Origin: Nemertoderma westbladi
Lineage: Eukaryota; Animalia; Xenacoelomorpha
Direction of reading: 5' to 3'
Assembly (NCBI GenBank): GCA_032718475.1
Contig: JAUCBJ010000553.1
Location: forward strand, 1-38,241
DNA length: 38,241 nt
Shown: positions 4,465 through 33,617 of the stretch, piece by piece
Layout: each line of letters starts with the position of its first letter
How positions within the stretch are numbered: the stretch's first letter is position 1
The notes under the pieces: model-generated
Seen by the model: the letters and a program-made list of their open reading frames with translations, nothing else
What the model was told of the DNA's origin: nothing
The model's database searches: none
Position numbers and translations under genes: made by a program

Positions 4465-4681
4465 ACTGGATAAGGTTGAAGAAATTCGTCCAATCAAAAA
4501 GATTCGGCGAAACGATGCTGAGCGCCCTCTAGCGGCAGTTGAAGACGAGGAAGAAGAAGAAGACGATGCGGCTTTCACTTCCAAGAGGGCAAAGTCCTTA
4601 TCGACTATCGCTATCGATGTGACGGCGAGGCATTTATTTCTAGACATCGAGAACGTAGCGAACGTAGTGTTACTGAGTATG
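4465..4681 (+). CDS. SYMPK: Symplekin exon B
   Basis: atttag|A acceptor completes the CG|A codon; acidic linker then IDVTARHL...ENVANVVLLSM; donor ATG|gtgagt (phase 0). Confidence 0.92.
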
Positions 4682-6820
4682 GTGAGTCAACGTAGTGCTA
4701 CTGAGTATGGTAAGTCAACGTAGCGAACGTAGTGTTACTGAGTATGGTGAGTCAACGTAGTGCTACTGAGTATGGTGAGTCAACGTAGTGCTACTGAGTA
4801 TGGTGAGTCAACATAGCCGACGTAGTGCTATGGAGTATGGTGAGTCAACGTAGTACTACTAGTATGGTGAGTCAACGTAGTGCTACTGAGTATGGTGAGT
4901 CAACATAGCCAACGTAGTGCTACGGAGTATGGTGAGTCAACATAGCCAACGTAGTGCTACGGAGTATGGTTTGTCAACGTAGTGCTACTGAGTATGGTGA
5001 GTCAACATAGCCAACTTAGTGCTACTGAGTATGGTGAGTCAACGAGTGCTACTGAGTAAGGTGAGTCAACATCGCCAACGTAGTGCTACTGATTATGGTT
5101 TGTCAACGTAGTGCTACTGAGTATGGTGAGCCAACGAGTGCTACTGGGTATGGTGAGTCAACATAGCCAACGTAGTGCTACGGAGTATGGATTGTCAACG
5201 TAGTGCTACTGAGTATGGTGAGTCAACATAGCTAACGTAGTGCTACTGAGTATGGTGAGTCAACATAGCTAACGTAGTGCTACTGAGTATGGTGAGTCAA
5301 CGTAGTGCTACTGAGTATGGTGCAACGTAGTGCTACTGAGTATGGTGAGCCAACGAGTGCTACTGAGTATGGTGAGTCAACGTAGTGCTACTGAGTATGG
5401 TGAGTCAACGTAGTGCTACTGAGTATGGTGAGCCAACGAGTGCTACTGAGTATGGTGAGTCAACGAAGTGCTACTGAGTATGGTGAGTCAACATAGCCAA
5501 CGTAGTGCTACGGAGTATGGTTTGTCAACGTAGTGCTAATGAGTATGGTGAGTCAACATAGTTAACGTAGTGCTACTGAGTATGGTGAGTCAATGTAGTG
5601 CTACTGAGTATGACGAGTCAACGTAGTGCTACTGAGTATGGTGAGCCAACGAGTGCTACTGAGTATGGTGAGTCAACGTAGTGCTACTGAGTATGGTGAG
5701 CCAACGAGTGCTACTGAGTATGGTGAGTCAACGTAGTGCTACTGAATATGGTGAGTCAACGTAGTGCTACTGAGTATGGTGAGCCAACGAGTGCTACTGA
5801 GTATGGTGAGTCAACGTAGTGCTACTGAGTATTGTGAGTCAACATAGCCAACGTAGTTATACTGAGTATGGTGAGTCAACGTAGTGCTACTGAGTATGGT
5901 GAGCCAACGAGTGCTACTGAGTATGGTGAGTCAACGTAGTGCTACTATGGTGAGTCAACATAGCCAACGTAGTGTTACTGAGTATGGTGAGTCAACATAG
6001 CTAACGTAGTGCTACTGAGTATGGTGAGTCAACATAGCCAACGTAGTGCTACTGAGTATGGTGAGTCAGCATAGCTAACGTAGTGCTACTGAGTATGGTG
6101 AGTCAACATAGCCAACGTAGTTATACTGAGTATGGTGAGCCAACGAGTGCTACTGAGTATGGTGAGTCAACGAGTGCTACTGAGTATGGTGAGTCAACGT
6201 AGTGCTACTATTGTGAGTCAACATAGCCAACGTAGTGTTACTGAGTATGGTGAGTCAACATAGCTAACGTAGTGCTACTGAGTATGGTTAGCCAACGTAG
6301 TCAACGTAGTTATACTGAGTATGGTGAGCCAACGAGTGCTACTGAGTATGGTGAGTCAACGTAGTCAACGTAGTGTTACTGAGTATGGTGAGTCAACATA
6401 GCCAACGTAGTGCTACTGGGTATGGTGAGTCAACGTAGCGAACGTAGTGTTACTGAGTATGGTGAGTCAACATAGCCAACGTACTTACGTAGTGCTACTG
6501 AGTATGGTGAGTCAACATAGCCAACGTAGTGCTACTGAGTATGGTGAGTCAACGTAGTGTTACTGAGTATGGTAAGTGGACGTTTCTAACGTAGTGCTAC
6601 TGAGTATGGTTAGCCAACGTAGTCAACGTAGTTATACTGAGTATGGTGAGCCAACGAGTGCTACTGAGTATGGTGAGTCAACGTAGTCAACGTAGTGTTA
6701 CTGAATATGGTGAGTCAACATAGCTAACGTAGTGCTACTGAGTATGGTTAGCCAACGTAGTGCTACTGAGTATGGTGAGTCAACGTAGCCAACGTAGTGT
6801 TGCTGATTATGATAAATCAA
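4652..6820 (+). repeat. Donor-spanning minisatellite 1: 28/37-bp units, roughly 70 copies
   Basis: Unit (AACATAGCC)AACGTAGTGCTACTGAGTATG|GTGAGTC is the end of exon B plus the first 7 intron nt. The last copy is degenerate. Copy number is estimated from length. Confidence 0.96.
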
Positions 6821-6960
6821 TTGAGTGTAGAGAGGCAATCTCGCAGTGATGTGAGTCTCTGTCTCATATGGTTAATTTGATTCCCGACGCTTAAAGATTA
6901 TTTATCTTTCTGCCAATAGATTTTGGAAACTTTTTAGGAAGTATTTACTTTATTTTACAG

Positions 6961-7116
6961 TTACACCTACCAGAAAGGATTCCAGTCCACTTCCACTCCT
7001 CCTACACTCCCATAGCAGCTGCCGGTGGGGGAATGCAGATCAAACACGTAACTCGTCTCCTAGCAACGCAAATGACGGCCGCTGGGATCGGGCCGGGGAT
7101 CGAATTTGTAGCTAAA
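6961..7116 (+). CDS. SYMPK: Symplekin exon C (not in the ORF track)
   Basis: ttttacag| acceptor; LHLPERIPVHFHSSYTPIAAAGGGMQIKHVTRLLATQMTAAGIGPGIEFVAK; donor AAA|gttagt (phase 0). Confidence 0.93.
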
Positions 7117-7278
7117 GTTAGTCACATAGGCAGCCATTAGATTATCTAATTTGTACCTAAAGTTAGTCACATAGGCAGCCATTAGATTATCGGATTTGTA
7201 GCTAAAGTTAGTCACATAGGCAGCCATTAGATTATCGGATTTGTAGCTAAAGTTAGTCACATAGGCAGCCATTAGATT
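7099..7278 (+). repeat. Donor-spanning minisatellite 2: 45-bp unit x4
   Basis: ATCGRATTTGTAGCTAAA|GTTAGTCACATAGGCAGCCATTAGATT at 7099, 7144, 7189 and 7234. Confidence 0.96.
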
Positions 7279-7461
7279 GCATCGGATGGCCTATTATTCA
7301 TGTTTCACCGTCATTGAAATATTATTGTTATTCATGGTAGTAAATAAAATAGTTTGATTTATACAATATTATTGACTCACACTATTATAGTGTGTAGTGT
7401 GAATCACAGACGGGATGTATGGAGATTCGTTATTAACTCAATATTATTTGTTTATTTGCAG

Positions 7462-7644
7462 CAAGAAGCGGACGCCATCGAGAAAAAGCGTAGGCGGCTG
7501 GAAGAAATGGAGCAGACAAAGACGGCTGCCATAGCAACGGTGCTGGGAGGCACCGTCGTCAAGGAGACAGCTGCTGTATCTTCCGGCTACACAATACCGC
7601 CGCCAGAGTTGGACGAAATCAATAAAATGATAACGCAACCTTCG
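7462..7644 (+). CDS. SYMPK: Symplekin exon D (poorly conserved linker)
   Basis: tttgcag| acceptor; open GC-richer frame QEADAIEKKRRRLEE...ITQPS; donor TCG|gtaaga; phase 0/0 fits both neighbours. Confidence 0.85.
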
Positions 7645-7730
7645 GTAAGATATGTCGTTGTCATAGCAACCTTCGGTAAGATATGTCGTTGTCATAGCAA
7701 CCTTCGGTAAGAATTGTCGTTGTCATAGCA
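7635..7730 (+). repeat. Donor-spanning minisatellite 3: 31-bp unit x3
   Basis: GCAACCTTCG|GTAAGATATGTCGTTGTCATA at 7635, 7666 and 7697. Confidence 0.95.
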
Positions 7731-7859: not shown

Positions 7860-8073
7860 TTGAAGCGCGGCGAGCGTTCTGTACGGAAGTTCCAGCTGAC
7901 CGATCTAGCGTTCCCGCTGTCGCACGACACGATGCACCGATTCGCGAGCGAGTCTGTCCGTCGGATCCTCGGGTCCGACACTCTCTGTGAGACCGTCGGC
8001 GTCGCCGTATCCGAGCAACGCCTACAACTCCTCTCCCGATTGGCTACCTCCTATGGCGACTACATATCAGAAG
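7860..8073 (+). CDS. SYMPK: Symplekin exon E
   Basis: tttcag| acceptor; RKFQLTDLAFPL...SVRRIL...RLQLLSRLAT; donor G|gttcgc (phase 1). Confidence 0.88.
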
Positions 8074-8223: not shown

Positions 8224-8413
8224 CTATTGGGGAGTATGTGTTAGAGGATATGCGAGGTAGACAGGATCTGGCTGTAGCTTGGCTCTACCAGGAGTACTCA
8301 ATTTACGAAGGTTACACTGCCACCAACGGCCGGGGCGACCTGGAACCTTACGATGAGTACCTAACTAACCTACTAATGGCCTGTAAGGAGCGACCGGACT
8401 CACAGAAAGAAGG
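8224..8413 (+). CDS. SYMPK: Symplekin exon F
   Basis: tttgcag|CT acceptor; YVLEDMRGRQDLAVAWLYQEY...ERPDSQKEG; donor GG|gttggt (phase 2). Confidence 0.93.
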
Positions 8414-8953: not shown

Positions 8954-9149
8954 ATTATTCACTAAACTGTTGCTAGAGGCGCCTATTATTACGGACCGCG
9001 CCCAGGATGTCCTGTGTAAATTCTGTCTGGACCCGGCGCATTATGAATCAGGTCTCCAGGCAACCGCATACATTGTGGAGATGCGGCCGGGACAAAGCCA
9101 ACAGTTCACAAGAATATTAGTGAGAATGAGTACAGTGGATAATGCAGAG
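8954..9149 (+). CDS. SYMPK: Symplekin exon G
   Basis: atttag|A acceptor; LFTKLLLEAPIIT...ILVRMSTVDNAE; donor GAG|gttggt (phase 0). Confidence 0.93.
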
Positions 9150-12100
9150 GTTGGTTAACAGAATGAGTACAGTGGATAATGCAGAGGTTGGTTAACAGAC
9201 CCCCACACCCTAGTGAGAATGAGTACAGTGGATAATGCAGAGGTTGGTTAACAGAACGAGTACAGTGAATAATGCAGAGGTTGGTTAACAGATCCCCACA
9301 CCCTAATGAGAATGAGTACAGTGGATAATGCAGAGGTTGTTTAACAGAATGAGTACAGTGGATAATGCAGAGGTTGGTTAACAGAATGAGTACAGTGGAT
9401 AATGCAGAGGTTGGTTAACAGAATGAGTACAGTGGATAATGCAGAGGTTGGTTAACAGAATGAGTACAGTGGATAATGCAGAGGTTGGTTAACAGAATGA
9501 GTACAGTGGATAATGCAGAGGTTGGTTAACAGACCCCCACACCCTATAGTGAGAATGAGTACAGTGGATAATGCAGAGGTTGGTTAACAGACCCCCACAC
9601 CCTATAGTGAGAATGAGTACAGTGGATAATGCAGAGGTTGGTTAACAGACCCCCACACCCTATAGTGAGAATGAGTACAGTGGATAATGCAGAGGTTGGT
9701 TAACAGAATGAGTACAGCGGATAATGCAGAGGTTGGTTAACAGACCCCCACACCCTAGTGAGAATGAGTACAGTGGATAATGCAGAGGTTGGTTAACAGA
9801 CCCCCACACCCTATAGTGAGAATGAGTACAGTGGATAATGCAGAGGTTGGTTAACAGACCCCCACACCCTAGTGAGAATGAGTACAGTGGATAATGCAGA
9901 GGTTGGTTAACAGACCCCCACACCCTATAGTGAGAATGAGTACAGTGGATAATGCAGAGGTTGGTTAACAGAATGAGTACAGCGGATAATGCAGAGGTTG
10001 GTTAACAGACCCCCACACCCTATAGTGAGAATGAGTACAGTGGATAATGCAGAGGTTGGTTAACAGAATGAGTACAGTGGATAATGCAGAGGTTGGTTAA
10101 CAGACCCCCACACCCTAGTGAGAATGAGTACAGTGGATAATGCAGAGGTTGGTTAACAGAATGAGTACAGCGGATAATGCAGAGGTTGGTTAATAGACCC
10201 CCACACCCTAGTGAGAATGAGTACAGTGGATAATGCAGAGGTTGGTTAACAGACCCCCACACCCTAGTGAGAATGAGTACAGTGGATAATGCAGAGGTTG
10301 GTTAACAGACCCCCACACCCTAGTGAGAATGAGTACAGTGGATAATGCAGAGGTTGGTTAACAGACCCCCACACCCTAGTGAGAATGAGTACAGTGGATA
10401 ATGCAGAGGTTGGTTAACAGAATGAGTACAGCGGATAATGCAGAGGTTGGTTAATAGACCCCCACACCCTAGTGAGAATGAGTACAGTGGATAATGCAGA
10501 GGTTGGTTAACAGACCCCCACACCCTAGTGAGAATGAGTACAGTGGATAATGCAGAGGTTGGTTAACAGACCCCCACACCCTATAGTGAGAATGAGTACA
10601 GTGGATAATGCAGAGGTTGGTTAACAGAATGAGTACAGCGGATAATGCAGAGGTTGGTTAACAGACCCCCACACCCTAGTGAGAATGAGTACAGTGGATA
10701 ATGCAGAGGTTGGTTAACAGACCCCCACACCCTATAGTGAGAATGAGTACAGTGGATAATGCAGAGGTTGGTTAACAGAATGAGTACAGCGGATAATGCA
10801 GAGGTTGGTTAACAGACCCCCACACCCTAGTGAGAATGAGTACAGTGGATAATGCAGAGGTTGGTTAACAGACCCCCACACCCTATAGTGAGAATGAGTA
10901 CAATGGATAATGCAGAGATTGGTTAACAGAATGAGTGCAGTGGATAATGCAGAGGTTGGTTAACAGAATGAGTACAGTGGATAATGCAGAGGTTGGTTAA
11001 CAGAATGAGTACAGTGGATAATGCAGAGGTTGGTTAACAGACCCCCACACTCTAGTGAGAATGAGTACAGTGGATAATGCAGAGGTTGGTTAACAGACCC
11101 CCACACCCTATAGTGAGAATGAGTACAGTGGATAATGCAGAGGTTGGTTAACAGAATGAGTACAGCGGATAATGCAGAGGTTGGTTAACAGACCCCCACA
11201 CTCTAGTGAGAATGAGTACAGTGGATAATGCAGAGGTTGGTTAACAGACCCCCACACCCTATAGTGAGAATGAGTACAGTGGATAATGCAGAGGTTGGTT
11301 AACAGAATGAGTACAGTGGATAATGCAGAGGTTGGTTAACAGACCCCCACACCCTATAGTGAGAATGAGTACAGTGGATAATGCAGAGGTTGGTTAACAG
11401 AATGAGTACAGTGGATAATGCAGAGATTGGTTAACAGAATGAGTACAGTGGATAATGCAGAGGTTGGTTAACAGAATGAGTACAGCGGATAATGCAGAGG
11501 TTGGTTAACAGAATGAGTACAATGGATAATGCAGAGGTTGGTTAACAGAATGAGTACAGTGGATAATGCAGAGGTTGGTTAACAGAATGAGTACAGCGGA
11601 TAATGCAGATGTTGGTTAACAGACCCCCACACCCTAGTGAGAATGAGTACAGTGGATAATGCAGAGGTTGGTTAACAGAATGAGTACCGTGGATAATGCA
11701 GAGGTTGGTTAACAGAATGAGTACAGTGGATAATGCAGAGATTGGTTAACAGAATGAGTACAGTGGATAATGCAGAGGTTGGTTAACAGAATGAGTACAG
11801 TGGATAATGCAGAGGTTGGTTAACAGAATGAGTACAGCGGATAATGCAGAGGTTGGTTAACAGACCCCCACACCCTAGTGAGAATGAGTACAGTGGATAA
11901 TGCAGAGGTTGGTTAACAGACCCCCACACCCTAGTGAGAATGAGTACAGTGGATAATGCAGAGGTTGGTTAACAGAATGAGTACAGTGGATAATGCAGAG
12001 GTTGTTTAACAGAATGAGTACAGTGGATAATGCAGAGGTTGGTTAACAGACCCCCACACCCTAGTGAGAATGAGTACAGTGGATAATGCAGAGGTTGGTT

Positions 12101-15100
12101 AACAGAATGAGTACAGTGGATAATGCAGAGGTTGGTTAACAGAATGAGTGCAGTGGATAATGCAGAGGTTGGTTAACAGAATGAGTACAGCGGATAATGC
12201 AGAGGTTGGTTAACAGACCCCCACACCCTAGTGAGAATGAGTACAGTGGATAATGCAGAGGTTGGTTAACAGATCCCCACACCCTAGTGAGAATGAGTAC
12301 AGTGGATAATGCAGAGGTTGGTTAACAGAATGAGTACAGTGGATAATGCAGAGGTTGGTTAACAGAATGAGTGCAGTGGATAATGCAGAGGTTGGTTAAC
12401 AGAATGAGTACAGCGGATAATGCAGAGGTTGGTATACAGACCCCCACACCCTAGTGAGAATGAGTACAGTGGATAATACAGAGGTTGGTTAACAGAATGA
12501 GTACAGTGGATAATGCAGAGGTTGGTATACAGACCCCCACACCCTAGTGAGAATGAGTACAGTGGATAATGCAGAGGTTGGTTAACAGACCCCCACACCC
12601 TAGTGAGAATGAGTACAGTGGATAATGCAGAGGTTGGATAACAGAATGAGTACAGTGGATAATGCAGAGGTTGGTTAACAGAATGAGTACAGTGGATAAT
12701 GCAGAGGTTGGTTAACAGAATGAGTACAGCGGATAATGCAGAGGTTGGTATACAGACCCCCACACCCTAGTGAGAATGAGTACAGTGGATAATACAGAGG
12801 TTGGTTAACAGAATGAGTACAGTGGATAATGCAGAGGTTGGTTAACAGACCCCCACACCCTAGTGAGAATGAGTACAGTGGATAACGCAGAGGTTGGTTA
12901 ACAGAATGAGTACAGTGGATAATGCAGAGGTTGGTTAACAGACCCCCACACCCTAGTGAGAATGAGTACAGTGGATAATACAGAGGTTGGTTAACAGAAT
13001 GAGTACAGTGGATAATGCAGAGGTTGGTTAACAGAATGAGTACAGTGGATAATACAGAGGTTGGTTAACAGAATGAGTACAGTGGATAATGCAGAGGTTG
13101 GTTAACAGACCCCCACACCCTAGTGAGAATGAGTACAGTGGATAATGCAGAGGTTGGTTAACAGACCCCCACACCCTAGTGAGAATGAGTACAGTGGATA
13201 ATGCAGAGGTTGGTTAACAGAATGAGTACAGTGGATAATGCAGAGGTTGGTTAACAGAATGAGTACAGCGGATAATGCAGAGGTTGGTTAACAGACCCCC
13301 ACACCCTAGTGAGAATGAGTACAGTGGATAATGCAGAGGTTGGTTAACAGAATGAGTACAGTGGATAATGCAGAGGTTGGTTAACAGAATGAGTGCAGTG
13401 GATAATGCAGAGGTTGGTTAACAGAATGAGTACAGCGGATAATGCAGAGGTTGGTTAACAGACCCCCACACCCTAGTGAGAATGAGTACAGTGGATAATA
13501 CAGAGGTTGGTTAACAGAATGAGTACAGTGGATAATGCAGAGGTTGGTTAACAGAATGAGTACAGCGGATAATGCAGAGGTTGGTTAACAGAATGAGTAC
13601 AGTGGATAATGCAGAGGTTGGTTAACAGAATGAGTACAGTGGATAATGCAGAGGTTGGTTAACAGAATGAGTACAGCGGATAATGCAGAGGTTGGTTAAC
13701 AGACCCCCACACCCTAGTGAGAATGAGTACAATGGATAATGCAGAGGTTGGTTAACAGAATGAGTACAGCGGATAATGCAGAGGTTGGTTAACAGACCCC
13801 CACACCCTAGTGAGAATGAGTACAGTGGATAATGCAGAGGTTGGTTAACAGACCCCCACACCCTAGTGAGAATGAGTACAGTGGATAATGCAGTGGTTAA
13901 CAGAATGAGTACAGTGGATAATGCAGAGGTTGGTTAACAGAATGAGTACAATGGATAATGCAGAGGTTGGTTAACAGAATGAGTACAGTGGATAATGCAG
14001 AGGTTGGTTAACAGAATGAGTACAGTGGATAATGCAGAGGTTGGTTAACAGAATGAGTACAATGGATAATGCAGAGGTTGGTTAACAGACCCCCACACTC
14101 TAGTGAGAATGAGTACAGTGGATAACGCAGATGTTGGTTAACAGACCCCCACACCCTATAGTGAGAATGAGTACAGTGGATAATGCAGAGGTTGGTTAAT
14201 AGAATGAGTACAGTGGATAACGCAGAGGTTGGTTAACAGACCCCCACACCCTATAGTGAGAATGAGTACAGTGGATAATGCAGAGGTTGGTTAACAGAAT
14301 GAGTACAGTGGATAATGCAGAGGTTGGTTAACAGACCCCCACACCCTAGTGAGAATTAGTACAGTGGATAATGCAGAGGTTGGTTAACAGAATGAGTACA
14401 GTGGATAATGCAGAGGTTGGTTAACAGAATGAGTACAGTGGATAATACGAGGTTGGTTAACAGACCCCCACACCCTATAGTGAGAATGAGTACAGTGGAT
14501 AATGCAGAGGTTGGTTAACAGAATGAGTACAGTGGATAATGCAGAGGTTGGTTAACAGACCCCCACACCCTAATGAGAATGAGTACAGTGGATAATGCAG
14601 AGGTTGGTTAACAGAAAGAGTACAGTGGATAATGCAGAGGTTGGTTAACAGAATGAGTACAGTGGATAATGCGGAGGTTGGTTAACAGAATGAGTACAAT
14701 GGATAATGCAGAGGTTGGTTAACAGACCCCCACACCCTATAGTGAGAATGAGTACAGTGGATAATGCAGAGGTTGGTTAACAGAATGAGTACAGTGGATA
14801 ATGCAGAGGTTGTTTAACAGAATGAGTACAGTGGATAATGCAGAGGTTGGTTAACAGAATGAGTACAGTGGATAATGCAGAGGTTGGTTAACAGAATGAG
14901 TACAGTGGATAATGCAGAGGTTGGTTAACAGAATGAGTACAGTAGATAATGCAGAGGTTGGTTAACAGAATGAGTACAGTGGATAATGCAGAGATTGGTT
15001 AACATAATGAGTACAGCGGATAATGCAGAGGTTGGTTAACAGAATGAGTACAGCGGATAATGCAGAGGTTGGTTAACAGAATGAGTACAGTGGATAATGC

Positions 15101-18100
15101 AGAGGTTGGTTAACAGAATGAGTACAGCGGATAATGCAGAGGTTGGTTAACAGACCCCCACACCCTAGTGAGAATGAGTACAGTGGATAATGCAGAGGTT
15201 GGTTAACAGAATGAGTACCGTGGATAATGCAGAGGTTGGTTAACAGAATGAGTACAGTGGATAATGCAGAGATTGGTTAACAGAATGAGTACAGTGGATA
15301 ATGCAGAGGTTGGTTAACAGAATGAGTACAGCGGATAATGCAGAGGTTGGTTAACAGACCCCCACACCCTAGTGAGAATGAGTACAGTGGATAATGCAGA
15401 GGTTGGTTAACAGAATGAGTACAGTGGATAATGCAGAGGTTGTTTAACAGAATGAGTACAGTGGATAATGCAGAGGTTGGTTAACAGAATGAGTACAGTG
15501 GATAATGCAGAGGTTGGTTAACAGAATGAGTACAGCGGATAATGCAGAGGTTGGTATACAGACCCCCACACCCTAGTGAGAATGAGTACAGTGGATAATG
15601 CAGAGGTTGGTTAACAGAATGAGTACAGTGGATAATGCAGAGGTTGGTTAACAGAATGAGTGCAGTGGATAATGCAGAGGTTGGTTAACAGAATGAGTAC
15701 AGCGGATAATGCAGAGGTTGGTTAACAGACCCCCACACCCTAGTGAGAATGAGTACAGTGGATAATGCAGAGGTTGGTTAACAGACCCCCACACCCTAGT
15801 GAGAATGAGTACAGTGGATAATGCAGAGGTTGGTTAACAGAATGAGTACAGTGGATAATGCAGAGGTTGGTTAACAGAATGAGTACAGTGGATAATGCAG
15901 AGGTTGGTTAACAGAATGAGTACAGTGGATAATGCAGAGGTTGGTTAACAGAATGAGTACAGCGGATAATGCAGAGGTTGGTATACAGACCCCCACACCC
16001 TAGTGAGAATGAGTACAGTGGATAATGCAGAGGTTGGTTAACAGACCCCCACACCCTAGTGAGAATGAGTACAGTGGATAATGCAGAGGTTGGTTAACAG
16101 ACCCCCACACCCTAGTGAGAATGAGTACAGTGGATAATGCAGAGGTTGGTTAACAGACCCCCACACCCTAGTGAGAATGAGTACAGTGGATAATACAGAG
16201 GTTGGTTAACAGAATGAGTACAGTGGATAATGCAGAGGTTGGTTAACAGACCCCCACACCCTAGTGAGAATGAGTACAGTGGATAATGCAGAGGTTGGTT
16301 AACAGACCCCCACACCCTAGTGAGAATGAGTACAGTGGATAATGCAGAGGTTGGTTAACAGACCCCCACACCCTAGTGAGAATGAGTACAGTGGATAATG
16401 CAGAGGTTGGTTAACAGAATGAGTACAGTGGATAATGCAGAGGTTGGTTAACAGAATGAGTGCAGTGGATAATGCAGAGGTTGGTTAACAGAATGAGTAC
16501 AGCGGATAATGCAGAGGTTGGTTAACAGACCCCCACACCCTAGTGAGAATGAGTACAGTGGATAATACAGAGGTTGGTTAACAGAATGAGTACAGTGGAT
16601 AATGCAGAGGTTGGTTAACAGAATGAGTACAGCGGATAATGCAGAGGTTGGTTAACAGAATGAGTACAGTGGATAATGCAGAGGTTGGTTAACAGAATGA
16701 GTACAGTGGATAATGCAGAGGTTGGTTAACAGAATGAGTACAGCGGATAATGCAGAGGTTGGTTAACAGACCCCCACACCCTAGTGAGAATGAGTACAAT
16801 GGATAATGCAGAGGTTGGTTAACAGAATGAGTACAGCGGATAATGCAGAGGTTGGTTAACAGACCCCCACACCCTAGTGAGAATGAGTACAGTGGATAAT
16901 GCAGAGGTTGGTTAACAGACCCCCACACCCTAGTGAGAATGAGTACAGTGGATAATGCAGAGGTTGGTTAACAGAATGAGTACAGTGGATAATGCAGAGG
17001 TTGGTTAACAGAATGAGTACAGTGGATAATGCAGAGGTTGGTTAACAGAATGAGTACAATGGATAATGCAGAGGTTGGTTAACAGAGCAGAGGTTGGTTA
17101 ACAGAATGAGTACAATGGATAATGCAGAGGTTGGTTAACAGACCCCCACACCCTATAGTGAGAATGAGTACAGTGGATAATGCAGAGGTTGGTTAACAGA
17201 ATGAGTACAGTGGATAATGCAGAGGTTGGTTAACAGAATGAGTACAGTGGATAATACGAGGTTGGTTAACAGACCCCCACACCCTATAGTGAGAATGAGT
17301 ACAGTGGATAATACAGAGGTTGGTTAACAGAATGAGTACAGTGGATCATGCAGAGGTTGGTTAACAGAATGAGTACAGTGGATAATACGAGGTTGGTTAA
17401 CAGACCCCCACACCCTATAGTGAGAATGAGTACAGTGGATAATGCAGAGGTTGGTTAACAGAATGAGTACAGTGGATAATGCAGAGGTTGGTTAACAGAC
17501 CCCCACACCCTAATGGGAATGAGTACAGTGGATAATGCAGAGGTTGGTTAACAGACCCCCACTCTAGTGAGAATGAGTACAGTGGATAATGCAGAGGTTG
17601 GTTAACAGAAAGAGTACAGTGGATAATGCAGAGGTTGGTTAACAGAATGAGTACAGTGGATAATGCAGAGGTTGGTTAACAGAATGAGTACAATGGATAA
17701 TGCAATGAGTACAATGGATAATGCAGAGGTTGGTTAACAGACCCCCACACCCTATAGTGAGAATGAGTACAGTGGATAATGCAGAGGTTGGTTAACAGAA
17801 TGAGTACAGTGGATAATGCAGAGGTTGGTTAACAGAATGAGTACAGTGGATAATGCAGAGGTTGGTTAACAGAATGAGTACAGTGGATAATGCAGAGGTT
17901 GGTTAACAGAATGAGTACAGTGGATAATGCAGAGGTTGGTTAACAGAATGAGTACAGTGGATAATGCAGAGGTTGGTTAACAGAACGAGTACAGTGAATA
18001 ATGCAGAGGTTGGTTAACAGAATGAGTACAGTGGATAATGCAGAGGTTGGTTAACAGAATGAATACAGTGGATAATGCAGAGGTTGGTTAACAGAATGAG

Positions 18101-21100: not shown

Positions 21101-24100
21101 TACAGTGGATAATACGAGGTTGGTTAACAGACCCCCACACCCTATAGTGAGAATGAGTACAGTGGATAATGCAGAGGTTGGTTAACAGAATGAGTACAGT
21201 GGATAATGCAGAGGTTGGTTAACAGACCCCCACACCCTAATGGGAATGAGTACAGTGGATAATGCAGAGGTTGGTTAACAGACCCCCACTCTAGTGAGAA
21301 TGAGTACAGTGGATAATGCAGAGGTTGGTTAACAGAAAGAGTACAGTGGATAATGCAGAGGTTGGTTAACAGAATGAGTACAGTGGATAATGCAGAGGTT
21401 GGTTAACAGAATGAGTACAATGGATAATGCAATGAGTACAATGGATAATGCAGAGGTTGGTTAACAGACCCCCACACCCTATAGTGAGAATGAGTACAGT
21501 GGATAATGCAGAGGTTGGTTAACAGAATGAGTACAGTGGATAATGCAGAGGTTGGTTAACAGAATGAGTACAGTGGATAATGCAGAGGTTGGTTAACAGA
21601 ATGAGTACAGTGGATAATGCAGAGGTTGGTTAACAGAATGAGTACAGTGGATAATGCAGAGGTTGGTTAACAGAATGAGTACAGTGGATAATGCAGAGGT
21701 TGGTTAACAGAACGAGTACAGTGAATAATGCAGAGGTTGGTTAACAGAATGAGTACAGTGGATAATGCAGAGGTTGGTTAACAGAATGAATACAGTGGAT
21801 AATGCAGAGGTTGGTTAACAGAATGAGTACAGTGGATAATGCAGAGGTTGGTTAACAAACCCCCACACCCTAGAGAGAATGAGTACAGTGGATAACGCAG
21901 AGGTTGGTTAACAGAATGAGTACAGTGGATAATGCAGAGGTTGGTTAACAGAACGAGTACAGTGAATAATGCAGAGGTTGGTTAACAGAATGAGTACAGT
22001 GGATAATGCAGAGGTTGGTTAACAGAATGAGTACAGTGGATAATGCAGAGGTTGGTTAACAGACCCCCACACCCTATAGTGAGAATGAGTACAGTGGATA
22101 ATGCAGAGGTTGGTTAACAGAATGAGTACAGTGGATAATGCAGAGGTTGGTTAACAGAATGAGTACAGTGGATAATGCAGAGGTTGGTTAACAGAATGAG
22201 TACAGCGGATAATGCAGAGGTTGGTTAACAGACCCCCACACCCTAGTGAGAATGAGTACAATGGATAATGCAGAGGTTGGTTAACAGAATGAGTACAGCG
22301 GATAATGCAGAGGTTGGTTAACAGACCCCCACACCCTAGTGAGAATGAGTACAGTGGATAATGCAGAGGTTGGTTAACAGACCCCCACACCCTAGTGAGA
22401 ATGAGTACAGTGGATAATGCAGTGGTTAACAGAATGAGTACAGTGGATAATGCAGAGGTTGGTTAACAGAATGAGTACAATGGATAATGCAGAGGTTGGT
22501 TAACAGAATGAGTACAGTGGATAATGCAGAGGTTGGTTAACAGAATGAGTACAGTGGATAATGCAGAGGTTGGTTAACAGAATGAGTACAATGGATAATG
22601 CAGAGGTTGGTTAACAGACCCCCACACTCTAGTGAGAATGAGTACAGTGGATAACGCAGATGTTGGTTAACAGACCCCCACACCCTATAGTGAGAATGAG
22701 TACAGTGGATAATGCAGAGGTTGGTTAACAGAATGAGTACAGTGGATAACGCAGAGGTTGGTTAACAGACCCCCACACCCTATAGTGAGAATGAGTACAG
22801 TGGATAATGCAGAGGTTGGTTAACAGAATGAGTACAGTGGATAATGCAGAGGTTGGTTAACAGACCCCCACACCCTAGTGAGAATTAGTACAGTGGATAA
22901 TGCAGAGGTTGGTTAACAGAATGAGTACAGTGGATAATGCAGAGGTTGGTTAACAGAATGAGTACAGTGGATAATACGAGGTTGGTTAACAGACCCCCAC
23001 ACCCTATAGTGAGAATGAGTACAGTGGATAATGCAGAGGTTGGTTAACAGAATGAGTACAGTGGATAATGCAGAGGTTGGTTAACAGACCCCCACACCCT
23101 AATGAGAATGAGTACAGTGGATAATGCAGAGGTTGGTTAACAGAACCCCACACCCTAGTGAGAATGAGTACAGTGGATAATGCAGAGGTTGGTTAACAGA
23201 AAGAGTACAGTGGATAATGCAGAGGTTGGTTAACAGAATGAGTACAGTGGATAATGCGGAGGTTGGTTAACAGAATGAGTACAATGGATAATGCAGAGGT
23301 TGGTTAACAGAACCCCACACCCTATAGTGAGAATGAGTACAGTGGATAATGCAGAGGTTGGTTAACAGAATGAGTACAGTGGATAATGCAGAGGTTGGTT
23401 AACAGAATGAGTACAGTGGATAATGCAGAGGTTGGTTAACAGAATGAGTACAGTGGATAATGCAGAGGTTGGTTAACAGAATGAGTAGAGTGGATAATGC
23501 AGAGGTTGGTTAACAGAATGAGTACAGTGGATAATGCAGAGGTTGGTTAACAGAATGAGTACAGTGGATAATGCAGAGGTTGGTTAACAGAATGAGTACA
23601 GTGGATAATGCAGAGGTTGGTTAACAGAATGAGTACAGTGGATAATGCAGAGGTTGGTTAACAGAATGAGTACAGTGGATAATGCAGAGGTTGGTTAACA
23701 AACCCCCACACCCTAGTGAGAATGAGTACAGTGGATAACGCAGAGGTTGGTTAACAGAATGAGTACAGTGGATAATGCAGAGGTTGGTTAACAGAATGAG
23801 TACAGTGGATAATGCAGAGGTTGGTTAACAAACCCCCACACCCTAGTGAGAATGAGTACAGTGGATAACGCAGAGGTTGGTTAACAGAATGAGTACAGTG
23901 GATAATGCAGAGGTTGGTTAACAGAATGAGTACAGTGGATAATGCAGAGGTTGGTTAACAGACCCCCACACCCTATAGTGAGAATGAGTACAGTGGATAA
24001 TGCAGAGGTTGGTTAACAGAATGAGTACAGTGGATAATGCAGAGGTTGGTTAACAGAATGAGTACAGTGGATAATGCAGAGGTTGGTTAACAGAATGAGT

Positions 24101-27100
24101 ACAGTGGATAATGCAGAGGTTGGTTAACAGAATGAGTACAGCGGATAATGCAGAGGTTGGTTAACAGACCCCCACACCCTAGTGAGAATGAGTACAATGG
24201 ATAATGCAGAGGTTGGTTAACAGAATGAGTACAGCGGATAATGCAGAGGTTGGTTAACAGACCCCCACACCCTAGTGAGAATGAGTACAGTGGATAATGC
24301 AGAGGTTGGTTAACAGACCCCCACACCCTAGTGAGAATGAGTACAGTGGATAATGCAGAGGTTGGTTAACAGAATGAGTACAGTGGATAATGCAGAGGTT
24401 GGTTAACAGAATGAGTACAATGGATAATGCAGAGGTTGGTTAACAGAATGAGTACAGTGGATAATGCAGAGGTTGGTTAACAGAATGAGTACAGTGGATA
24501 ATGCAGAGGTTGGTTAACAGAATGAGTACAATGGATAATGCAGAGGTTGGTTAACAGACCCCCACACTCTAGTGAGAATGAGTACAGTGGATAACGCAGA
24601 GGTTGGTTAACTGACCCCCACACCCTATAGTGAGAATGAGTACAGTGGATAATGCAGAGGTTGGTTAACAGAATGAGTACAGTGGATAACGCAGAGGTTG
24701 GTTAACAGAATGAGTACAGTGGATAATGCAGAGGTTGGTTAACAGAATGAGTACAGTGGATAATGCAGAGGTTGGTTAACAGAATGAGTACAGTGGATAA
24801 CGCAGAGGTTGGTTAACAGAATGAGTACAGTGGATAATGCAGAGGTTGGTTAACAGAATGAGTACAATGGATAATGCAGAGGTTGGTTAACAGACCCCCA
24901 CACTCTAGTGAGAATGAGTACAGTGGATAACGCAGAGGTTGGTTAACAGACCCCCACACCCTATAGTGAGAATGAGTACAGTGGATAATGCAGAGGTTGG
25001 TTAACAGAATGAGTACAGTGGATAATGCAGAGGTTGGTTAACAGAATGAGTACAGTGGATAATGCAGAGGTTGGTTAACAGAATGAGTACAATGGATAAT
25101 GCAGAGGTTGGTTAACAGACCCCCACACTCTAGTGAGAATGAGTACAGTGGATAACGCAGAGGTTGGTTAACAGACCCCCACACCCTATAGTGAGAATGA
25201 GTACAGTGGATAATGCAGAGGTTGGTTAACAGAATGAGTACAGTGGATAACGCAGAGGTTGGTTAACAGAATGAGTACAGTGGATAATGCAGAGGTTGGT
25301 TAACAGAATGAGTACAGTGGATAATGCAGAGGTTGGTTAACAGAATGAGTACAGTGGATAACGCAGAGGTTGGTTAACAGAATGAGTACAGTGGATAATG
25401 CAGAGGTTGGTTAACAGAATGAGTACAATGGATAATGCAGAGGTTGGTTAACAGACCCCCACACCCTATAGTGAGAATGAGTACAGTGGATAATGCAGAG
25501 GTTGGTTAACAGAATGAGTACAGTGGATAACGCAGAGGTTGGTTAACAGAATGAGTACAGTGGATAATGCAGAGGTTGGTTAACAGAATGAGTACAGTGG
25601 ATAATGCAGAGGTTGGTTAACAGACCCCCACACCCTATAGTGAGAATGAGTACAGTGGATAATGCAGAGGTTGGTTAACAGAATGAGTACAGTGGATAAC
25701 GCAGAGGTTGGTTAACAGAATGAGTACAGTGGATAATGCAGAGGTTGGTTAACAGAATGAGTACAGTGGATAATGCAGAGGTTGGTTAACAGAATGAGTA
25801 CAGTGGATAACGCAGAGGTTGGTTAACAGAATGAGTACAGTGGATAATGCAGAGGTTGGTTAACAGAATGAGTACAATGGATAATGCAGAGGTTGGTTAA
25901 CCGACCCCCACACCCTATAGTGAGAATGAGTACAGTGGATAATGCAGAGGTTGGTTAACAGAATGAGTACAGTGGATAACGCAGAGGTTGGTTAACAGAC
26001 CCCCACACCCTATAGTGAGAATGAGTACAGTGGATAATGCAGAGGTTGGTTAACAGAATGAGTACAGTGGATAACGCAGAAGTTGGTTAACAGAATGAGT
26101 ACAGTGGATAATGCAGAGGTTGGTTAACAGAATGAGTACAGTGGATAATGCAGAGGTTGGTTAACAGAATGAGTACAGTGGATAACGCAGAGGTTGGTTA
26201 ACAGAATGAGTACAGTGGATAATGCAGAGGTTGGTTAACAGAATGAGTACAATGGATAATGCAGAGGTTGGTTAACAGACCCCCACACCCTATAGTGAGA
26301 ATGAGTACAGTGGATAATGCAGAGGTTGGTTAACAGAATGAGTACAGTGGATAATGCAGAGGTTGGTTAACAGACCCCCACACTCTAGTGAGAATGAGTA
26401 CAGTGGATAACGCAGAGGTTGGTTAACAGACCCCCACACCCTATAGTGAGAATGAGTACAGTGGATAATGCAGAGGTTGGTTAACAGAATGAGTACAGTG
26501 GATAACGCAGAGGTTGGTTAACAGAATGAGTACAGTGGATAATGCAGAGGTTGGTTAACAGAATGAGTACAGTGGATAATGCAGAGGTTGGTTAACAGAA
26601 TGAGTACAGTGGATAATGCAGAGGTTGGTTAACAGAATGAGTACAATGGATAATGCAGAGGTTGGTTAACAGAATGAGTACAATGGATAATGCAGAGGTT
26701 GGTTAACAGACCCCCACACCCTATAGTGAGAATGAGTACAGTGGATAATGCAGAGGTTGGTTAACAGAATGAGTACAGTGGATAATGCAGAGGTTGGTTA
26801 ACAGACCCCCACACCCTATTGAGAATGAGTACAGTGGATAATGCAGAGGTTGTTTAACAGAATGAGTACAGTGGATAACGCAGAGGTTGGTTAACAGACC
26901 CCCACACTCTAGTGAGAATGAGTACAGTGGATAACGCAGAGGTTGGTTAACAGAATGAGTACAGTGGATAATGCGAGGTTGGTTAACAGAATGAGTACAA
27001 TGGATAATGCAGAGGTTGGTTAACAGACCCCCACACCCTAGTGAGAATGAGTGCAGTGGATAATGCAGAGGTTGGTTAACAGAATGAGTACAGTGGATAT

Positions 27101-27484
27101 TGCAGAGGTTGGTTAACATACCCCCACACCCTAGTGAGAATGAGTACAGTGGATAACGCAGAGGTTGGTTAACAGAATGAGTACAGTGGATAATGCAGAG
27201 GTTGGTTAACAGAATGAGTACAATGGATAATGCAGAGGTTGGTTAACAGACCCCCACACCCTAGTGAGAATGAGTGCAGTGGATAATGCAGAGGTTGGTT
27301 AACAGAATGAGTACAGTGGATAATGCGAGGTTGGTTAACAGAATGAGTACAGTGGATAATGCAGAGGTTGGTTAACAGAATGAGTACAGTGGATAATGCA
27401 GAGGTTGGTTAACAGACACCCACACCCTAGTGAGAATGAGTACAGTGGATAATGCAGAGGTTGGTTAACAGACCCCCACACCCT
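9118..27484 (+). repeat. Donor-spanning satellite 4: 18.4 kb of interleaved 37-bp and 56/58-bp units (~400+ copies)
   Basis: Short unit AGAATGAGTACAGTGGATAATGCAGAG|GTTGGTTAAC; the long unit adds AGACCCCCACACCCT(AT)AGTG. The array starts inside exon G and ends ...CCCCACACCCT before unique intron sequence. Copy number is estimated from length. Confidence 0.98.
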
Positions 27485-28798: not shown

Positions 28799-28937
28799 AT
28801 TCGGGATGCGGCAGTAACCATGGCCCATCAGCTGCACACCAATCCCGCTTGTAAGTCGCACGTAACCCAGTTAGCGTTGGAATACATGGGTTACATCGCA
28901 CTGCCGAAACCTCCCTCACACTTATTCCAAGAAATAG
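28799..28937 (+). CDS. SYMPK: Symplekin exon H (not in the ORF track)
   Basis: atcgtag| acceptor; IRDAAVTMAHQLHTNPACKSHVTQLALEYMGYIALPKPPSHLFQEI fills the expected gap (VR..ALNYL..PNPPS.LF); donor G|gttagt (phase 1). Confidence 0.88.
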
Positions 28938-29331: not shown

Positions 29332-29642
29332 GTGAATCTTTACCCGAGGATGCAGTATGGACTGAGGAAATTGCCAGACGATTCCTCTATTTCTACCTCA
29401 GCCTTATCGCCCTGGACAATAAACTCATCCATAGACTGGCAGCGGTGTTTGTAGAAGCAGTGCCCGACGTTAAGCGAACCATTCTGAGGACTCTAGACAC
29501 ACCAATGAGACTAATGAGTCTCAACTCACCTGAATTACTCACACTCGTAGAAGAGTGCCCGTCTGGAGCTGAAACACTGATCACAAGAATGCTACATATA
29601 CTCACAGAGAAAGCCCTGCCCCCTCCAGCACTTGTCACTAGG
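29332..29642 (+). CDS. SYMPK: Symplekin exon I
   Basis: ttttatag|GT acceptor; WTEE...KLIHRLAAVF...NSPELLTLVEECPSGAETLITRMLHILTEKALPPPALVTR; donor AGG|gtacgt (phase 0). Confidence 0.93.
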
Positions 29643-30810
29643 GTACGTATACTCACAGAGAAAGCCCTGCCCCCTCCAGCACTGGTCACTAGGGTACGTA
29701 TACTCACAGAGAAAGCCCTGCCCCCTCCAGCACTGGTCACTAGGGTACGTATACTCACAGAGAAAGCCCTGCCACCTCCAGCACTGGTCACTAGGGTACG
29801 TATATTCACAGAGAAAGCCCTGCCACCTCCAGCACTGGTCACTAGGGTACGTATACTCACAGAGAAAGCCCTGCCACCTCCAGCACTGGTCACTAGGGTA
29901 CGTATATTCACAGAGAAAGCCCTGCCACCTCCAGCACTGGTCACTAGGGTACGTATACTCACAGAGAAAGCCCTGCCACCTCCAGCACTGGTCACTAGGG
30001 TTCGTATATTCACAGAGAAAGCCCTGCCACCTCCAGCACTGGTCACTAGGGTACGTATACTCACAGAGAAAGCCCTGCCACCTCCAGCACTGGTCACTAG
30101 GGTTCGTATATTCACAGAGAAAGCCCTGCCACCTCCAGCACTGGTCACTAGGGTACGTATACTCACAGAGAAAGCCCTCCCACCTCCAGCACTGGTCACT
30201 AGGGTACGTATACTCACAGAGAAAGCCCTGCCACCTCCAGCACTGGTCACTAGGGTACGTATACTCACAGAGAAAGCCCTGCCACCTCCAGCACTGGTCA
30301 CTAGGGTTCGTATATTCACAGAGAAAGCCCTGCCACCTCCAGCACTGGTCACTAGGGTACGTATACTCACAGAGAAAGCCCTCCCACCTCCAGCACTGGT
30401 CACTAGGGTACGTATACTCACAGAGAAAGCCCTGCCCCCTCCAACACTGGTCACTAGGGTACGTATACTCACAGAGAAAGCCCTGCCACCTCCAGCACTG
30501 GTCACTAGGGTTCGTATATTCACAGAGAAAGCCCTGCCACCTCCAGCACTGGTCACTAGGGTACGTATACTCACAGAGAAAGCCCTCCCACCTCCAGCAC
30601 TGGTCACTAGGGTACGTATACTCACAGAGAAAGCCCTGCCCCCTCCAGCACTGGTCACTAGGGTACATATACTCACAGAGAAGCCCTGCCCCCTCCAGCA
30701 CTGGTCACTAGGGTACATATACTCACAGAGAAGCCCTGCCCCCTCCGCCTCCAGCCCCTGCCCCCTCCAGCACTGGTCACTAGGGTACGTATATACTCAT
30801 AGAGAAAGCC
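29598..30810 (+). repeat. Donor-spanning minisatellite 5: 51-bp in-frame unit, ~23 copies
   Basis: ATACTCACAGAGAAAGCCCTGCCMCCTCCAGCACTGGTCACTAGG|GTACGT encodes ILTEKALPPPALVTRVR. There are 21 full-length copies to 30668, followed by indel-bearing copies. Confidence 0.97.
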
Positions 30811-30853
30811 ATAGAAGACAACAATAATATATTGTGATTGTTTTTGATTGCAG

Positions 30854-31115
30854 GTTCGGGATTTGTACCACAAAAGAGTGTCTGACGTTCGGTTCCTCAT
30901 TCCGGTACTGACAGGTTTACAGAAGAGTGAGATTATTGCCACCCTCCCCAAACTCATTAAACAGAACCCTAACGTTGTGAAGGAAGTGTTTAATAGGTTG
31001 CTAGGTATCGGGTATGGCGAACAGGGTAGTAAAACCCCGATCACACCAATCGAGCTCCTTGTAGCCTTACACGAAATAGATTCTCTAAAGAGTGACATAA
31101 AGGCGATAATCAAAG
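30854..31115 (+). CDS. SYMPK: Symplekin exon J (C-terminal domain)
   Basis: ttgcag| acceptor; [19 protein letters not shown]...[19 protein letters not shown]...ELLVALH; donor G|gtaaag (phase 1). Confidence 0.95.
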
Positions 31116-31175
31116 GTAAAGTTCACTTTGATTCTTTATCAGGATCTCACCAAAGGCAAAAACATTAGGGTTGAA

Positions 31176-31259
31176 CTGTTAATGCAACTGTAATATATAA
31201 TAATATGATTATTATTACTTATGATCATAATCATATGATTATTGCAGTTGCATTAACAG
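31176..31259. repeat. 84-bp intronic inverted repeat/hairpin
   Basis: CTGTTAATGCAACTGTAATA ... TATTGCAGTTGCATTAACAG (19/20 complementary), with an inner ATATGATTAT/ATAATCATAT stem. Confidence 0.8.
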
Positions 31260-31849
31260 CTCATCATCTCCAATTCATGAAGTTTAACTTTTTACAATTT
31301 TCTCATACATCTTTCCTACCAAGATTTAGGTGATGAAAACTGGGTGTCGTAAAAAAATAAGTAGGCCTAGCTACTATTCCATATATTATTCCAACAAATT
31401 TATCAGACAGATAATAATTGACCGACCTAACGACCGACAGAAGGAATTTTAAGAATAGTATCGTTAAGCTAAGCTGTATAAGTTCGCAGCTCGTCGCCCT
31501 GTAATAATATATTAATTATTCCGAGATAATTATTCCAGTGTCTTCTTGTTGCAACCTTCCTCTCCCGGAACTGAACATGTGATTAAAATGTGATAACAAC
31601 CAAAGTGGTAAACCTGTTGTTGTTTAGGAATATAAATATATCAAGCAAATATATTTTTATATTAAGATCCTTTAATTTTTATATAAAAAAGAATTTAATA
31701 AGTTTGAAAATAAAATGTTGGTTTTTTTATTGATGTTAAACACGTTTTAGAGCGATCTCATATGCGTTTTAAATACAATCCAGTTTTTATTCTTTTAAAA
31801 AATAGTATTAATTATAATTACTACTGTATGATTACTATGTACTGTTAAA

Positions 31850-32085
31850 GGCGGGGAGGCTCAGTTGGTTGAGAGCCGGGCCTGCAATCTATGGTTGTAG
31901 GTTCAGCCCCGCCAGGGTCCACTCAGCCTTTCATCCACTGGGGTCGATAAAATGAGTACCAGTTATATAACTGGGAGCAAATCTTGGGATAGGAGTAGCG
32001 CCCACCCCTACCCTCGGGTAGCAGCTATCGAAAGAGGAGCCTTCGGGTCGCCTCCGGCTTCGGCCGACTGTTTGCTTGCTTTTGC
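31850..32085 (+). mobile_element. tRNA-derived SINE with central domain, simple-repeat tail and 13-bp target-site duplication
   Basis: A-box GGCTCAGTTGG and B-box-like GGTTCAGCCCC; core ACTCAGCCTTTCATCC...GGTCGATAAAATGAGTACC; (TTGC)n-like tail; direct repeat TTACTACTGTATG at 31818-31830 and 32086-32098. Confidence 0.85.
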
Positions 32086-32461
32086 TTACTACTGTATGCG
32101 GATCAAAGATTTTTCTCGAAGTGCAGCGATTAACATATCTACTCTATGCACATTCGGCTCAAAAACTTAACTATCATCAAGTAGATTTAGTATCGTGGTA
32201 ATATAAGTATAGTTAAGTAAATCTAATAAGTAAGTAACGAACTGAAATCCAATATATTGAATTCGTGGTGTAGAAATGAGGACATAGAATCGTTGATAGT
32301 ATCGGCTGGTTGACTGACGCGACTCGAACTTAGAATCTCAGAGTGCTCCATTTCTGAACAAAATCATCTATAATATCGTCAGGTTTCATGGCCTAAAAGT
32401 AACCCTACTATTATAGCTACGTCTAATAAAAAATTATTATTATTATTATGTTATATTTCAG

Positions 32462-32697
32462 CAACTAGTTTGTGCTTCATGGAGCGTGCGATATTTACCC
32501 AAGAAGTATTGGCAACCGTTATAAGTAAACTTGTCGACGTTTCCCCTATACCAACTCTGCTCATGCGAACTGTCATACAAACACTCACTCTATATCCCAG
32601 GCTGCTGTCCTTCGTCATGAGTACCTTGAATCGACTCATCTCTAAGGAGGTCTGGACGCAAACAAAACTCTGGGAGGGCTTTATTAAATGCTGCGAG
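32462..32697 (+). CDS. SYMPK: Symplekin exon K
   Basis: atttcag|CA acceptor; ATSLCFMER...[18 protein letters not shown]...[16 protein letters not shown]; donor GAG|gtacgt (phase 0). Confidence 0.95.
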
Positions 32698-33526
32698 GTA
32701 CGTTTTATTGGGAGGGCTTTATTAAATGCTGCGAGGTACGTTTTATTTGGAGGGCTTTATTAATTGCTGCGAGGTACGTTTCTTGGGAGGGCTTTATTAA
32801 ATGCTGCGAGGTACGTTTTATTGGAAGGTCTTTATTAATTGCTGCGAGGTACGTTTTATTGGGATGGCTTTATTAAATGCTGCGAGGTACGTTTATTGGG
32901 AGGGCTTTATTAAATGCTGCGAGGTACGTTTTATTGGGAGGGCTTTATTAAATGCTGCGAGGTACGTTTATTTGGAGGGCTTTATTAAAGGCTGCGAGTT
33001 ACGTTTTATTGGGAGGGCTTTATTAAATGCTGCGAAGTACGTTTTATTGGGAGGGCTTTATTAAATGCTGCGAGGTACGTTTTATTGGTAGGGCTTTATT
33101 AAATGCTGCGAGGTACGTTTATTGGGAGGGCTTTATTAAATGCTGCGAGGTACGTTTTATTGCGAGGGCTTTATTAAATGCTGCGAAGTACGTTTTATTG
33201 GGAGGGCTTTATTAAATGCTGCGAGGTACGTTTATTGGGAGGGCTTTATTAAATGCTGCGAGGTACGTTTTATTGCGAGGGCTTTATTAAATGCTGCGAG
33301 GTACGTTTTATTGGGTGGGCTTTATTAAATGCTGCGAGGTACGTTTTATTGGGAGGGCTTTATTAGTTGCTGCGTGGTACGTTTTATTGGGAGGGCTTTA
33401 TTAAATGCAGCGAAGTACGTTTATTGGGAGGGCTTTATTAATTGCTGCGAGGTTCGTTTTATTGGGAGGGTCTTTATTAAATGCTGCGAGGTACGTTTTC
33501 TTGGGAGGGCTTTATTAATTGCTGCG
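32671..33526 (+). repeat. Donor-spanning minisatellite 6: 37/38-bp unit, ~22-23 copies
   Basis: TGGGAGGGCTTTATTAAATGCTGCGAG|GTACGTTT(T)AT is the last 27 nt of exon K plus the intron start. Confidence 0.97.
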
Positions 33527-33617
33527 CACTATTGTTGGCGGGTTGGCGAGGGGTACTATTTGGTTTAAACATACCACGTAACTTACGTGAATCTAACATC
33601 GTATTTTATATCGGCAG

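Follow-up and report, generated by a model that had tools for sequence, protein, structure and literature searches.

Contig JAUCBJ010000553.1 of the Nemertoderma westbladi genome assembly (GCA_032718475.1), analysed here from position 1 to 38,241 of its forward strand (38,241 nt, hereafter the window), carries part of a symplekin gene in which six exons (B, C, D, G, I and K) run directly into tandem arrays of their own 3' end and 5' splice site (donor). The arrays are repeated head-to-tail into the following intron and comprise 67, 4, 3, 419, 23 and 22 copies, respectively, including the genuine one, and the first copy is the real junction in 6/6 cases. They show the tested features of a named class of repeats, the 'mirages', defined as minisatellite-like tandem duplications of exon-intron boundaries and first named at the lancelet Adh3 gene (Ebner et al., PMC3087553), of which they are an extreme case in density and size. 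With a probability of about 0.6, the six arrays are independent minisatellites of passive origin, that is, short local duplications kept since they are spliced out, whose crowding at donors stems from anchoring against the exon and from exon-biased seeding. They are likely harmless.

A symplekin gene with six donor-spanning arrays

Twelve coding exons (A to L, Table 1) were recognised on the forward strand of the window from position 3574 onward, and several observations identify the host gene as symplekin, a scaffold of 3'-end processing. Indeed, (i) exons A to L join into one open frame of about 811 amino acids, which aligns to 11/11 symplekin proteins with 38-48% identity over long stretches, no symplekin among the listed proteins being more than about 48% identical to it, (ii) exon I taken separately matches 11 symplekin proteins, (iii) the Pfam domains SYMPK_PTA1_N (exon A) and Symplekin_C (exons J and K) lie in this same frame, the curated Pfam cut-off being passed by 3/12 exons, and (iv) the introns between exons A and L (n = 11) are of the GT..AG type in all cases.

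The arrays occupy 22,710 of the 30,173 nt from exon A to exon L, i.e. 75% of the gene span. A first-pass annotation of the stretch had described arrays at these six exons with units of 10-45 exon nt plus 6-27 intron nt and a real first copy, and had held that the units share position only; both descriptions match the units measured here, which are mutually unrelated in sequence and retain at least 6 intron nt in all six arrays. The GT dinucleotide of the donor is intact in 530/538 copies (B 65/67, C 4/4, D 3/3, G 414/419, I 23/23, K 21/22). The two unit lengths of array B line up with a 9-nt internal repeat of exon B. In array G, two unit types are interspersed and derive from two nested duplications, with 3 nt of junction homology for the 37-nt unit and 1 nt for the 56-nt unit. 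This array also contains higher-order block duplications between 14745 and 22160, with spacings of 3,727 and 3,671 nt and exact runs of 833 and 1,677 nt, respectively, which fit block duplication by recent unequal exchange, or else an assembly error.

Table 1. Coding exons, donor arrays and intronic minisatellite of the symplekin gene in the window
Feature	Position	Strand	Description	Basis
Exon A	3574..3775	+	phase-2 intron next, no array	Pfam SYMPK_PTA1_N (5e-10); open frame
Exon B	4465..4681	+	phase 0	open frame, AG/GT ends; outside RNA comparison
Array B	4652..6811	+	28/27-nt and 37-nt units (last 21 or 30 exon nt + 7 intron nt); 67 copies	
Exon C	6961..7116	+	phase 0	spliced contig, joint 7116>7462
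Array C	7099..7278	+	45-nt unit (18 exon + 27 intron nt); 4 copies	
Exon D	7462..7644	+	phase 0	spliced contig, joint 7644>7860
Array D	7635..7730	+	31-nt unit (10 exon + 21 intron nt); 3 copies	
Exon E	7860..8073	+	phase 1, no array	contig comparison
Exon F	8224..8413	+	phase 2, no array	contig comparison
Exon G	8954..9149	+	phase 0	spliced contig, piece ends at 9149
Array G	9123..27484	+	18.3 kb; 37-nt (27 + 10) and 56/58-nt (32 + 24/26) units; 419 copies	
Exon H	28799..28937	+	phase 1, no array	open frame; length fits record coordinates of spliced contig
Exon I	29332..29642	+	phase 0	symplekin matches (53-62% identity); length fits record coordinates
Array I	29598..30810	+	51-nt unit (45 exon + 6 intron nt); 23 copies	
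Exon J	30854..31115	+	phase 1, no array	Pfam Symplekin_C (6.6e-21); spliced contig
Exon K	32462..32697	+	phase 0	Pfam Symplekin_C (5.4e-31); spliced contig, piece ends at 32697
Array K	32671..33526	+	38/37-nt unit (27 exon + 11 intron nt); 22 donor copies and a donor-less last exon part	
Exon L	33618..33746	+	phase 0, donor not duplicated	open frame
18-nt intronic minisatellite	33783..38241	+	at least ~249 copies, at least 4.4 kb; starts 36 nt after donor L	

The exon part of the copies is on average 91-100% identical to the genuine one, and the last copies are degenerate or partial in arrays B, I and K, so that concerted evolution with divergent boundary units, as known from mirages, is found here as well. 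Distinct units number 59 in G and 37 in B, those of G being interspersed in order. The GT, the other positions of the donor 9-mer and the exon part are changed at rates of 0.6, 0.4 and 1.9% in G and 2.4, 3.2 and 3.9% in K; as the GT changes about as often as the rest of the unit, its retention fits recent homogenisation.

Splicing from the second donor would change the reading frame in B, D, G and K and run into a stop in C, whose unit is in frame with a stop within its intron part. The unit of array I keeps the frame and contains no stop, and use of a later donor would add repeats of 17 amino acids. The first six intron bases of array I encode Val-Arg, the two residues with which exon J starts, and four of its copies carry a donor variant that is closer to the exon J start. 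In addition, a variant poly(A) signal (ATTAAA) is located about 10 nt before each donor copy of the K unit, with 17 copies in the intron.

Splicing across the arrays and their presence in public runs

The stretch is partly present in 5/8 listed public runs, the four best of which (X1 to X4) were compared with the window over positions 6820-9200 and 30690-32790, a range that covers arrays C, D, G, I and K and leaves array B outside. Runs X1 to X3 represent two samples from two studies, X1 possibly being the source sample, and their library types are not on record.

In X4, a single 3,268-nt contig contains the two joints given in Table 1 for exons C and D, reaches the ends of exons G (record position 1590) and K (record position 2538), and enters exon J at record position 2041. 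The last figure equals 1590 + 139 + 311 + 1, the value expected when exons H (139 nt) and I (311 nt) are both present and no unit has been added. The X4 bin depths at C, G and K also have the value expected for zero intron cover. Since its joints are of the GT..AG type, this contig represents a spliced transcript, although it is filed as 'DNA?'. The first donor is thus the one used at 5/5 arrays checked, in one contig, which bears out for five of the six arrays the earlier proposal that the extra copies are spliced out. Undisturbed regular splicing, a feature of mirages, is accordingly seen at C, D, G, I and K in one contig of another sample.

The acceptors used (7462, 7860 and 30854) lie outside the arrays. 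Recursive splicing through the AG/GT contained in the G and K units was considered and rejected. Such splicing requires a polypyrimidine tract, and these units are purine-rich and devoid of one.

The possibility that the arrays are an artefact of PCR-amplified long reads or of their assembly deserves mention. Two head-to-head copies of a 25-nt oligonucleotide are present at 2976-3026, and this oligonucleotide corresponds to the PacBio ultra-low-input amplification adapter (PMC13694257); PCR-amplified reads thus underlie the assembly, which is probably a chimera at this point. Moreover, the exact 1,677-nt repeat of array G at a spacing of 3,671 nt means that the total length of this array could be inflated by assembly error. 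Against this stand the runs of two studies. Indeed, the X1-X3 contigs break off some 30 nt inside the first repeated unit of D (7664), G (9151-9152) and K (32700), and all start at 30757, within the last unit of I, while an X3 contig (7249-8554) spans all three D copies. Summed contig depth relative to the flank, in X1/X2/X3, amounts to 31/23/34 at C, 2.8/1.7/1.0 at D, 70/46/38 at G, 5.8/2.3/1.0 at I and 20/8/57 at K; this measure is no copy number and reads as presence only, namely for C, D, G and K and more weakly for I. Bins without cover at 30690-30760 in X1-X3 were not used as evidence. The many interspersed variant units of G and B also speak against an artefact. For the existence of arrays C, D, G and K an artefact is therefore largely refuted, and as a general explanation it is scarcely credible.

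Depth and window copies do not match (C, 4 copies vs 23-34x; I, 23 copies vs 1-6x), which hints that array lengths differ between animals, bearing in mind that depth is no copy number. The exact exon-end motif of G gave 0 matches in metagenome contigs.

Crowding of the arrays at donors and its possible causes

A 14-mer centred on the junction recurs within 400 nt at 6/12 donors vs 0/12 acceptors (Fisher p = 0.014), in agreement with the 50% donor occupancy stated in the first-pass annotation. The latter had also excluded such arrays from acceptors and exon interiors, which holds for acceptors and needs a small correction for exon interiors: exon B contains, besides its 9-nt internal repeat, a GAA repeat (7.7 copies) and a 6-mer (2.9 copies). 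A shuffle-tested search for decayed copies detected none with p < 0.05 at the six array-free donors and 12 acceptors, and its only hits were end copies of arrays B and K. Look-alike copies behind donors D and J were rejected (p = 0.29 and 0.40).

Collapsing the arrays leaves 5,203 nt of intron in all, and under uniform seeding donors are expected to receive 7.6% of donor-or-intron events. The window contains four repeats away from junctions, and the observed donor share is 6/9, 6/10 or, when missed repeats are allowed for, 6/12 (p = 1.3e-5, 3.1e-5 and 1.2e-4), that is, a 24-, 18- or 12-fold donor excess over intron interiors. The earlier statement that the arrays go beyond chance is thereby confirmed against a uniform null within the window. 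As this window was picked for the donor-array pattern, these p values describe the window and not the genome. Donors with and without an array do not differ in strength (6-8 of 9 positions match the consensus in either group), and GC content is 50% in exons and 34% in collapsed introns. The GC content of the first 25 intron nt was dropped as a variable, being confounded by short units that place exon sequence there.

All arrays are located at phase-0 introns (6/7 phase-0 introns vs 0/5 others; p = 0.015 two-sided, 0.008 one-sided), and the seventh phase-0 donor, that of exon L, has the 18-nt array directly behind it. This association was found post hoc, after examination of several features, and may be due to chance.

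The favoured explanation, passive mirages, can be broken down as follows. Seeding would occur when a tandem duplication of 28-56 nt, produced by slippage or by microhomology-mediated repair, happens to straddle a donor. Such a duplication would be tolerated because the exon remains complete in copy 1, together with at least positions +1 to +6 of the intron, and this copy is used, the rest becoming intron, as is seen for C, D, G, I and K in one contig. A duplication within an exon would alter the protein. With one over an acceptor the wrong copy would come first, so that it would survive more rarely. Growth, to judge from the variant patterns, would proceed by unequal exchange and by duplication of blocks of several units, the copies being homogenised towards the exon copy and those at the end left degenerate. 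As for the crowding, which is the weakest step, the exon could shield the 5' end of an array from deletion, and GC-richer exon-derived DNA may seed faster and could supply the rest of the excess. Splicing-coupled mutagenesis would not be needed.

The first-pass annotation regarded the pattern as hard to explain by survival alone. This does not apply to the donor/acceptor asymmetry. The genuine donor comes first in an array and the genuine acceptor does not, and survival therefore predicts more donor than acceptor arrays. Scanning for acceptors towards the 3' side is widely accepted (PMC1557585), and the first copy of an acceptor array would have a full branch point and tract and yet be the wrong one. 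The claim stands for the excess over intron interiors. In a toy birth-death model with deletions from the 5' side blocked by the exon, six arbitrary parameter sets gave 1.1-, 2.0-, 3.9-, 6.9-, 9.3- and 21.8-fold enrichment, which would make anchoring a feasible contribution and says nothing of the cause.

Several points weigh against passive mirages. Survival by itself does not account for the excess over intron interiors, and anchoring alone is marginal, given that only 1/6 toy-model settings reaches about 22-fold vs an observed 12- to 24-fold. The GC-linked seeding bias is putative. The acceptor filter is not tight, as an acceptor mirage persists in lancelet BflGb6 (PMC3087553), and 0/12 acceptors may thus need more than survival. 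In the arrays other than G, array-end matches of 0-17 nt make microhomology inseparable from partial last copies. The phase-0 clustering is predicted by no model considered here, the favoured one included. Finally, splicing was read from a single de Bruijn contig; it comes from another sample, the arrays of which were not seen, and contigs of this type drop minor isoforms. In human 6-16 and CBS, two later donors are used as well (PMC1557585).

The first-pass annotation had raised a mutational process aimed at donors. In one form of it, breaks or slippage would be concentrated at the exon 3' ends of germ-line-expressed genes, through polymerase pausing, U1 engagement, R-loops or a nucleosome edge, survival then allowing growth. 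Arguments for it are the contrast of 6/12 donors with 3-4 repeats inside the 5.2 kb of collapsed intron (p = 1e-5 to 3e-5 against a null of 7.6%), the two nested hits at G and the seventh array starting 36 nt after donor L; the selection of the window for the pattern argues against, as does anchoring, which in the toy model can yield much of the excess with no targeting. Nothing in this analysis shows such a process, which is possible though rather improbable. A broader proposal, in which a splicing- or transcription-linked process of the lineage seeds duplications right over the 3' ends of exons, perhaps with a preference for phase-0 junctions, and in which a large share of donors grows satellites that become a main driver of intron and genome size, is speculative and improbable too.

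The gene could instead be a chance outlier of a minisatellite-rich genome, in which case donors would show no genome-wide excess other than that due to the acceptor filter. In the first pass the window had been picked out of some 250,000, and repeats away from junctions are present in it too, but six independent units with an in-window p of about 1e-5 make this ascertainment effect unlikely. A selected function, in which decoy donors would bind U1 snRNP and protect a long intron from premature polyadenylation, or would tune symplekin through unproductive splicing, is very unlikely. The retention of nearly all GT dinucleotides, the ATTAAA beside each K-unit donor and the in-frame, stop-free array I are what it has in its favour. 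On the other side, the GT is altered about as often as the remaining donor positions and the exon part, apparent copy number varies widely among samples, and the units are unrelated.

In lancelets, Adh3 mirages reportedly have units of 10-72 bp, according to papers citing Canestro et al. 2002, and somatic instability is said to have been reported for the Adh3 mirage. Mirages of the globins BflGb6 and BflGb9, with 3-6 units, are described in PMC3087553, and others in PGBD5 and troponin C in PMC3902484. The arrays of the present gene share with them units of some tens of bases across the exon-intron boundary, duplicated splice signals, normal splicing and divergent end copies. Lancelet mirages are length-unstable, with variation between haplotypes, and leave splicing undisturbed, their mechanism being described as unclear (PMC3087553); here, depth differs among samples, depth being no copy number. 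They occur at both 5' and 3' boundaries whereas six donors and no acceptors are concerned here, and the globin copy numbers are exceeded, with up to 419 units (18 kb).

Five human minisatellites also span donors, namely those of F7 IVS7 (37 bp), CBS IVS13, 6-16 intron 2, LMNB2 and PDGF intron 4, and mutagenesis of F7 showed that the most upstream of identical donors is selected exclusively (Borensztajn et al., PMC1557585). In these human variable-number repeats, as here, the first monomer spans the junction and is followed by identical pseudo-donors; the most upstream donor alone is used in F7, LMNB2 and PDGF, and two more in 6-16 and CBS. They differ in having one array of 5-25 copies per gene, scattered over the genome, vs six unrelated arrays in one gene that make up most of its span. 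Donor-anchored arrays are therefore not undescribed, as had been supposed (PMC3087553, PMC3902484, PMC1557585).

The parallel drawn earlier with an intron-gain route does not hold either. In the Rogers model, an AGGT inside coding sequence is duplicated and yields both new splice sites (PMC3265369; PMC3087553). Both situations involve a short tandem duplication within a gene that covers a splice-like site, and the G and K units contain AG/GT. Here, however, an existing donor is duplicated and no new intron arises; the acceptors used lie outside the arrays (joints at 7462, 7860 and 30854), which are thus not Rogers-type intermediates, and in no case do donor and acceptor of a new intron both stem from the duplication. 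Genome-wide counts of donor- versus acceptor-spanning arrays, or a gene with six arrays, were not found in the excerpts of the literature searched, which is weak evidence of absence, and the excerpts of PMC10078293 and PMC2206037 contain nothing on junction-spanning arrays.

Other elements of the window and significance of the arrays

The four repeats away from junctions are situated in introns A, F and G and downstream of exon L. In brief, these repeats include: a 32-nt repeat (4026-4167) inside an inverted-repeat element of intron A (4026-4415), which is MITE-like, with 51-nt arms that are 90% complementary and 32-nt subrepeats; a 15-nt repeat (8474-8519) at one or more high-copy AT-rich elements of intron F (8470-8900, depth up to 178,000); a decayed repeat of about 160 nt in intron G (~27720-28125), several copies of which compose a 380-nt imperfect palindrome (27722-28124); and the 18-nt minisatellite (33783 onward), in which no copy of the exon L end was detected and one early unit of which resembles, by eye, the B array over 13/14 nt. 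The palindrome matches mir-5014 of Rfam with 49.6 bits, far under the gathering score of 101, and the 9 Rfam matches in the region 27400-33800 are all under the gathering score and lie on AT-rich hairpins.

A very high-copy SINE-like element (31850-32080; summed depth up to 800,000) has a tRNA-like head and a simple-repeat tail, and ARAGORN called no tRNA, this head included. The beginning of the window (1-2974) consists of a 475-nt AT-rich tandem repeat (6.3 copies at 99% identity) containing runs of C and of G, which is unrelated to the gene; it gives the impression of a mitochondrial control-region repeat and meets the nuclear gene at the adapter.

In summary, the arrays belong to a known class, of which they are a striking but ordinary example, and their value is that of a test case. 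With 419 near-identical donors behind exon G and the first of them used in the assembled RNA, nature has in effect repeated the F7 'first donor wins' experiment on a large scale. In practice, gene predictors and short-read assemblies are led astray by arrays of this kind. As a single gene contains six independent arrays, the question of why mirages form can be put directly to the test in this genome, and a donor excess, if true genome-wide and in new mutations, would link splicing or transcription to the birthplaces of repeats.

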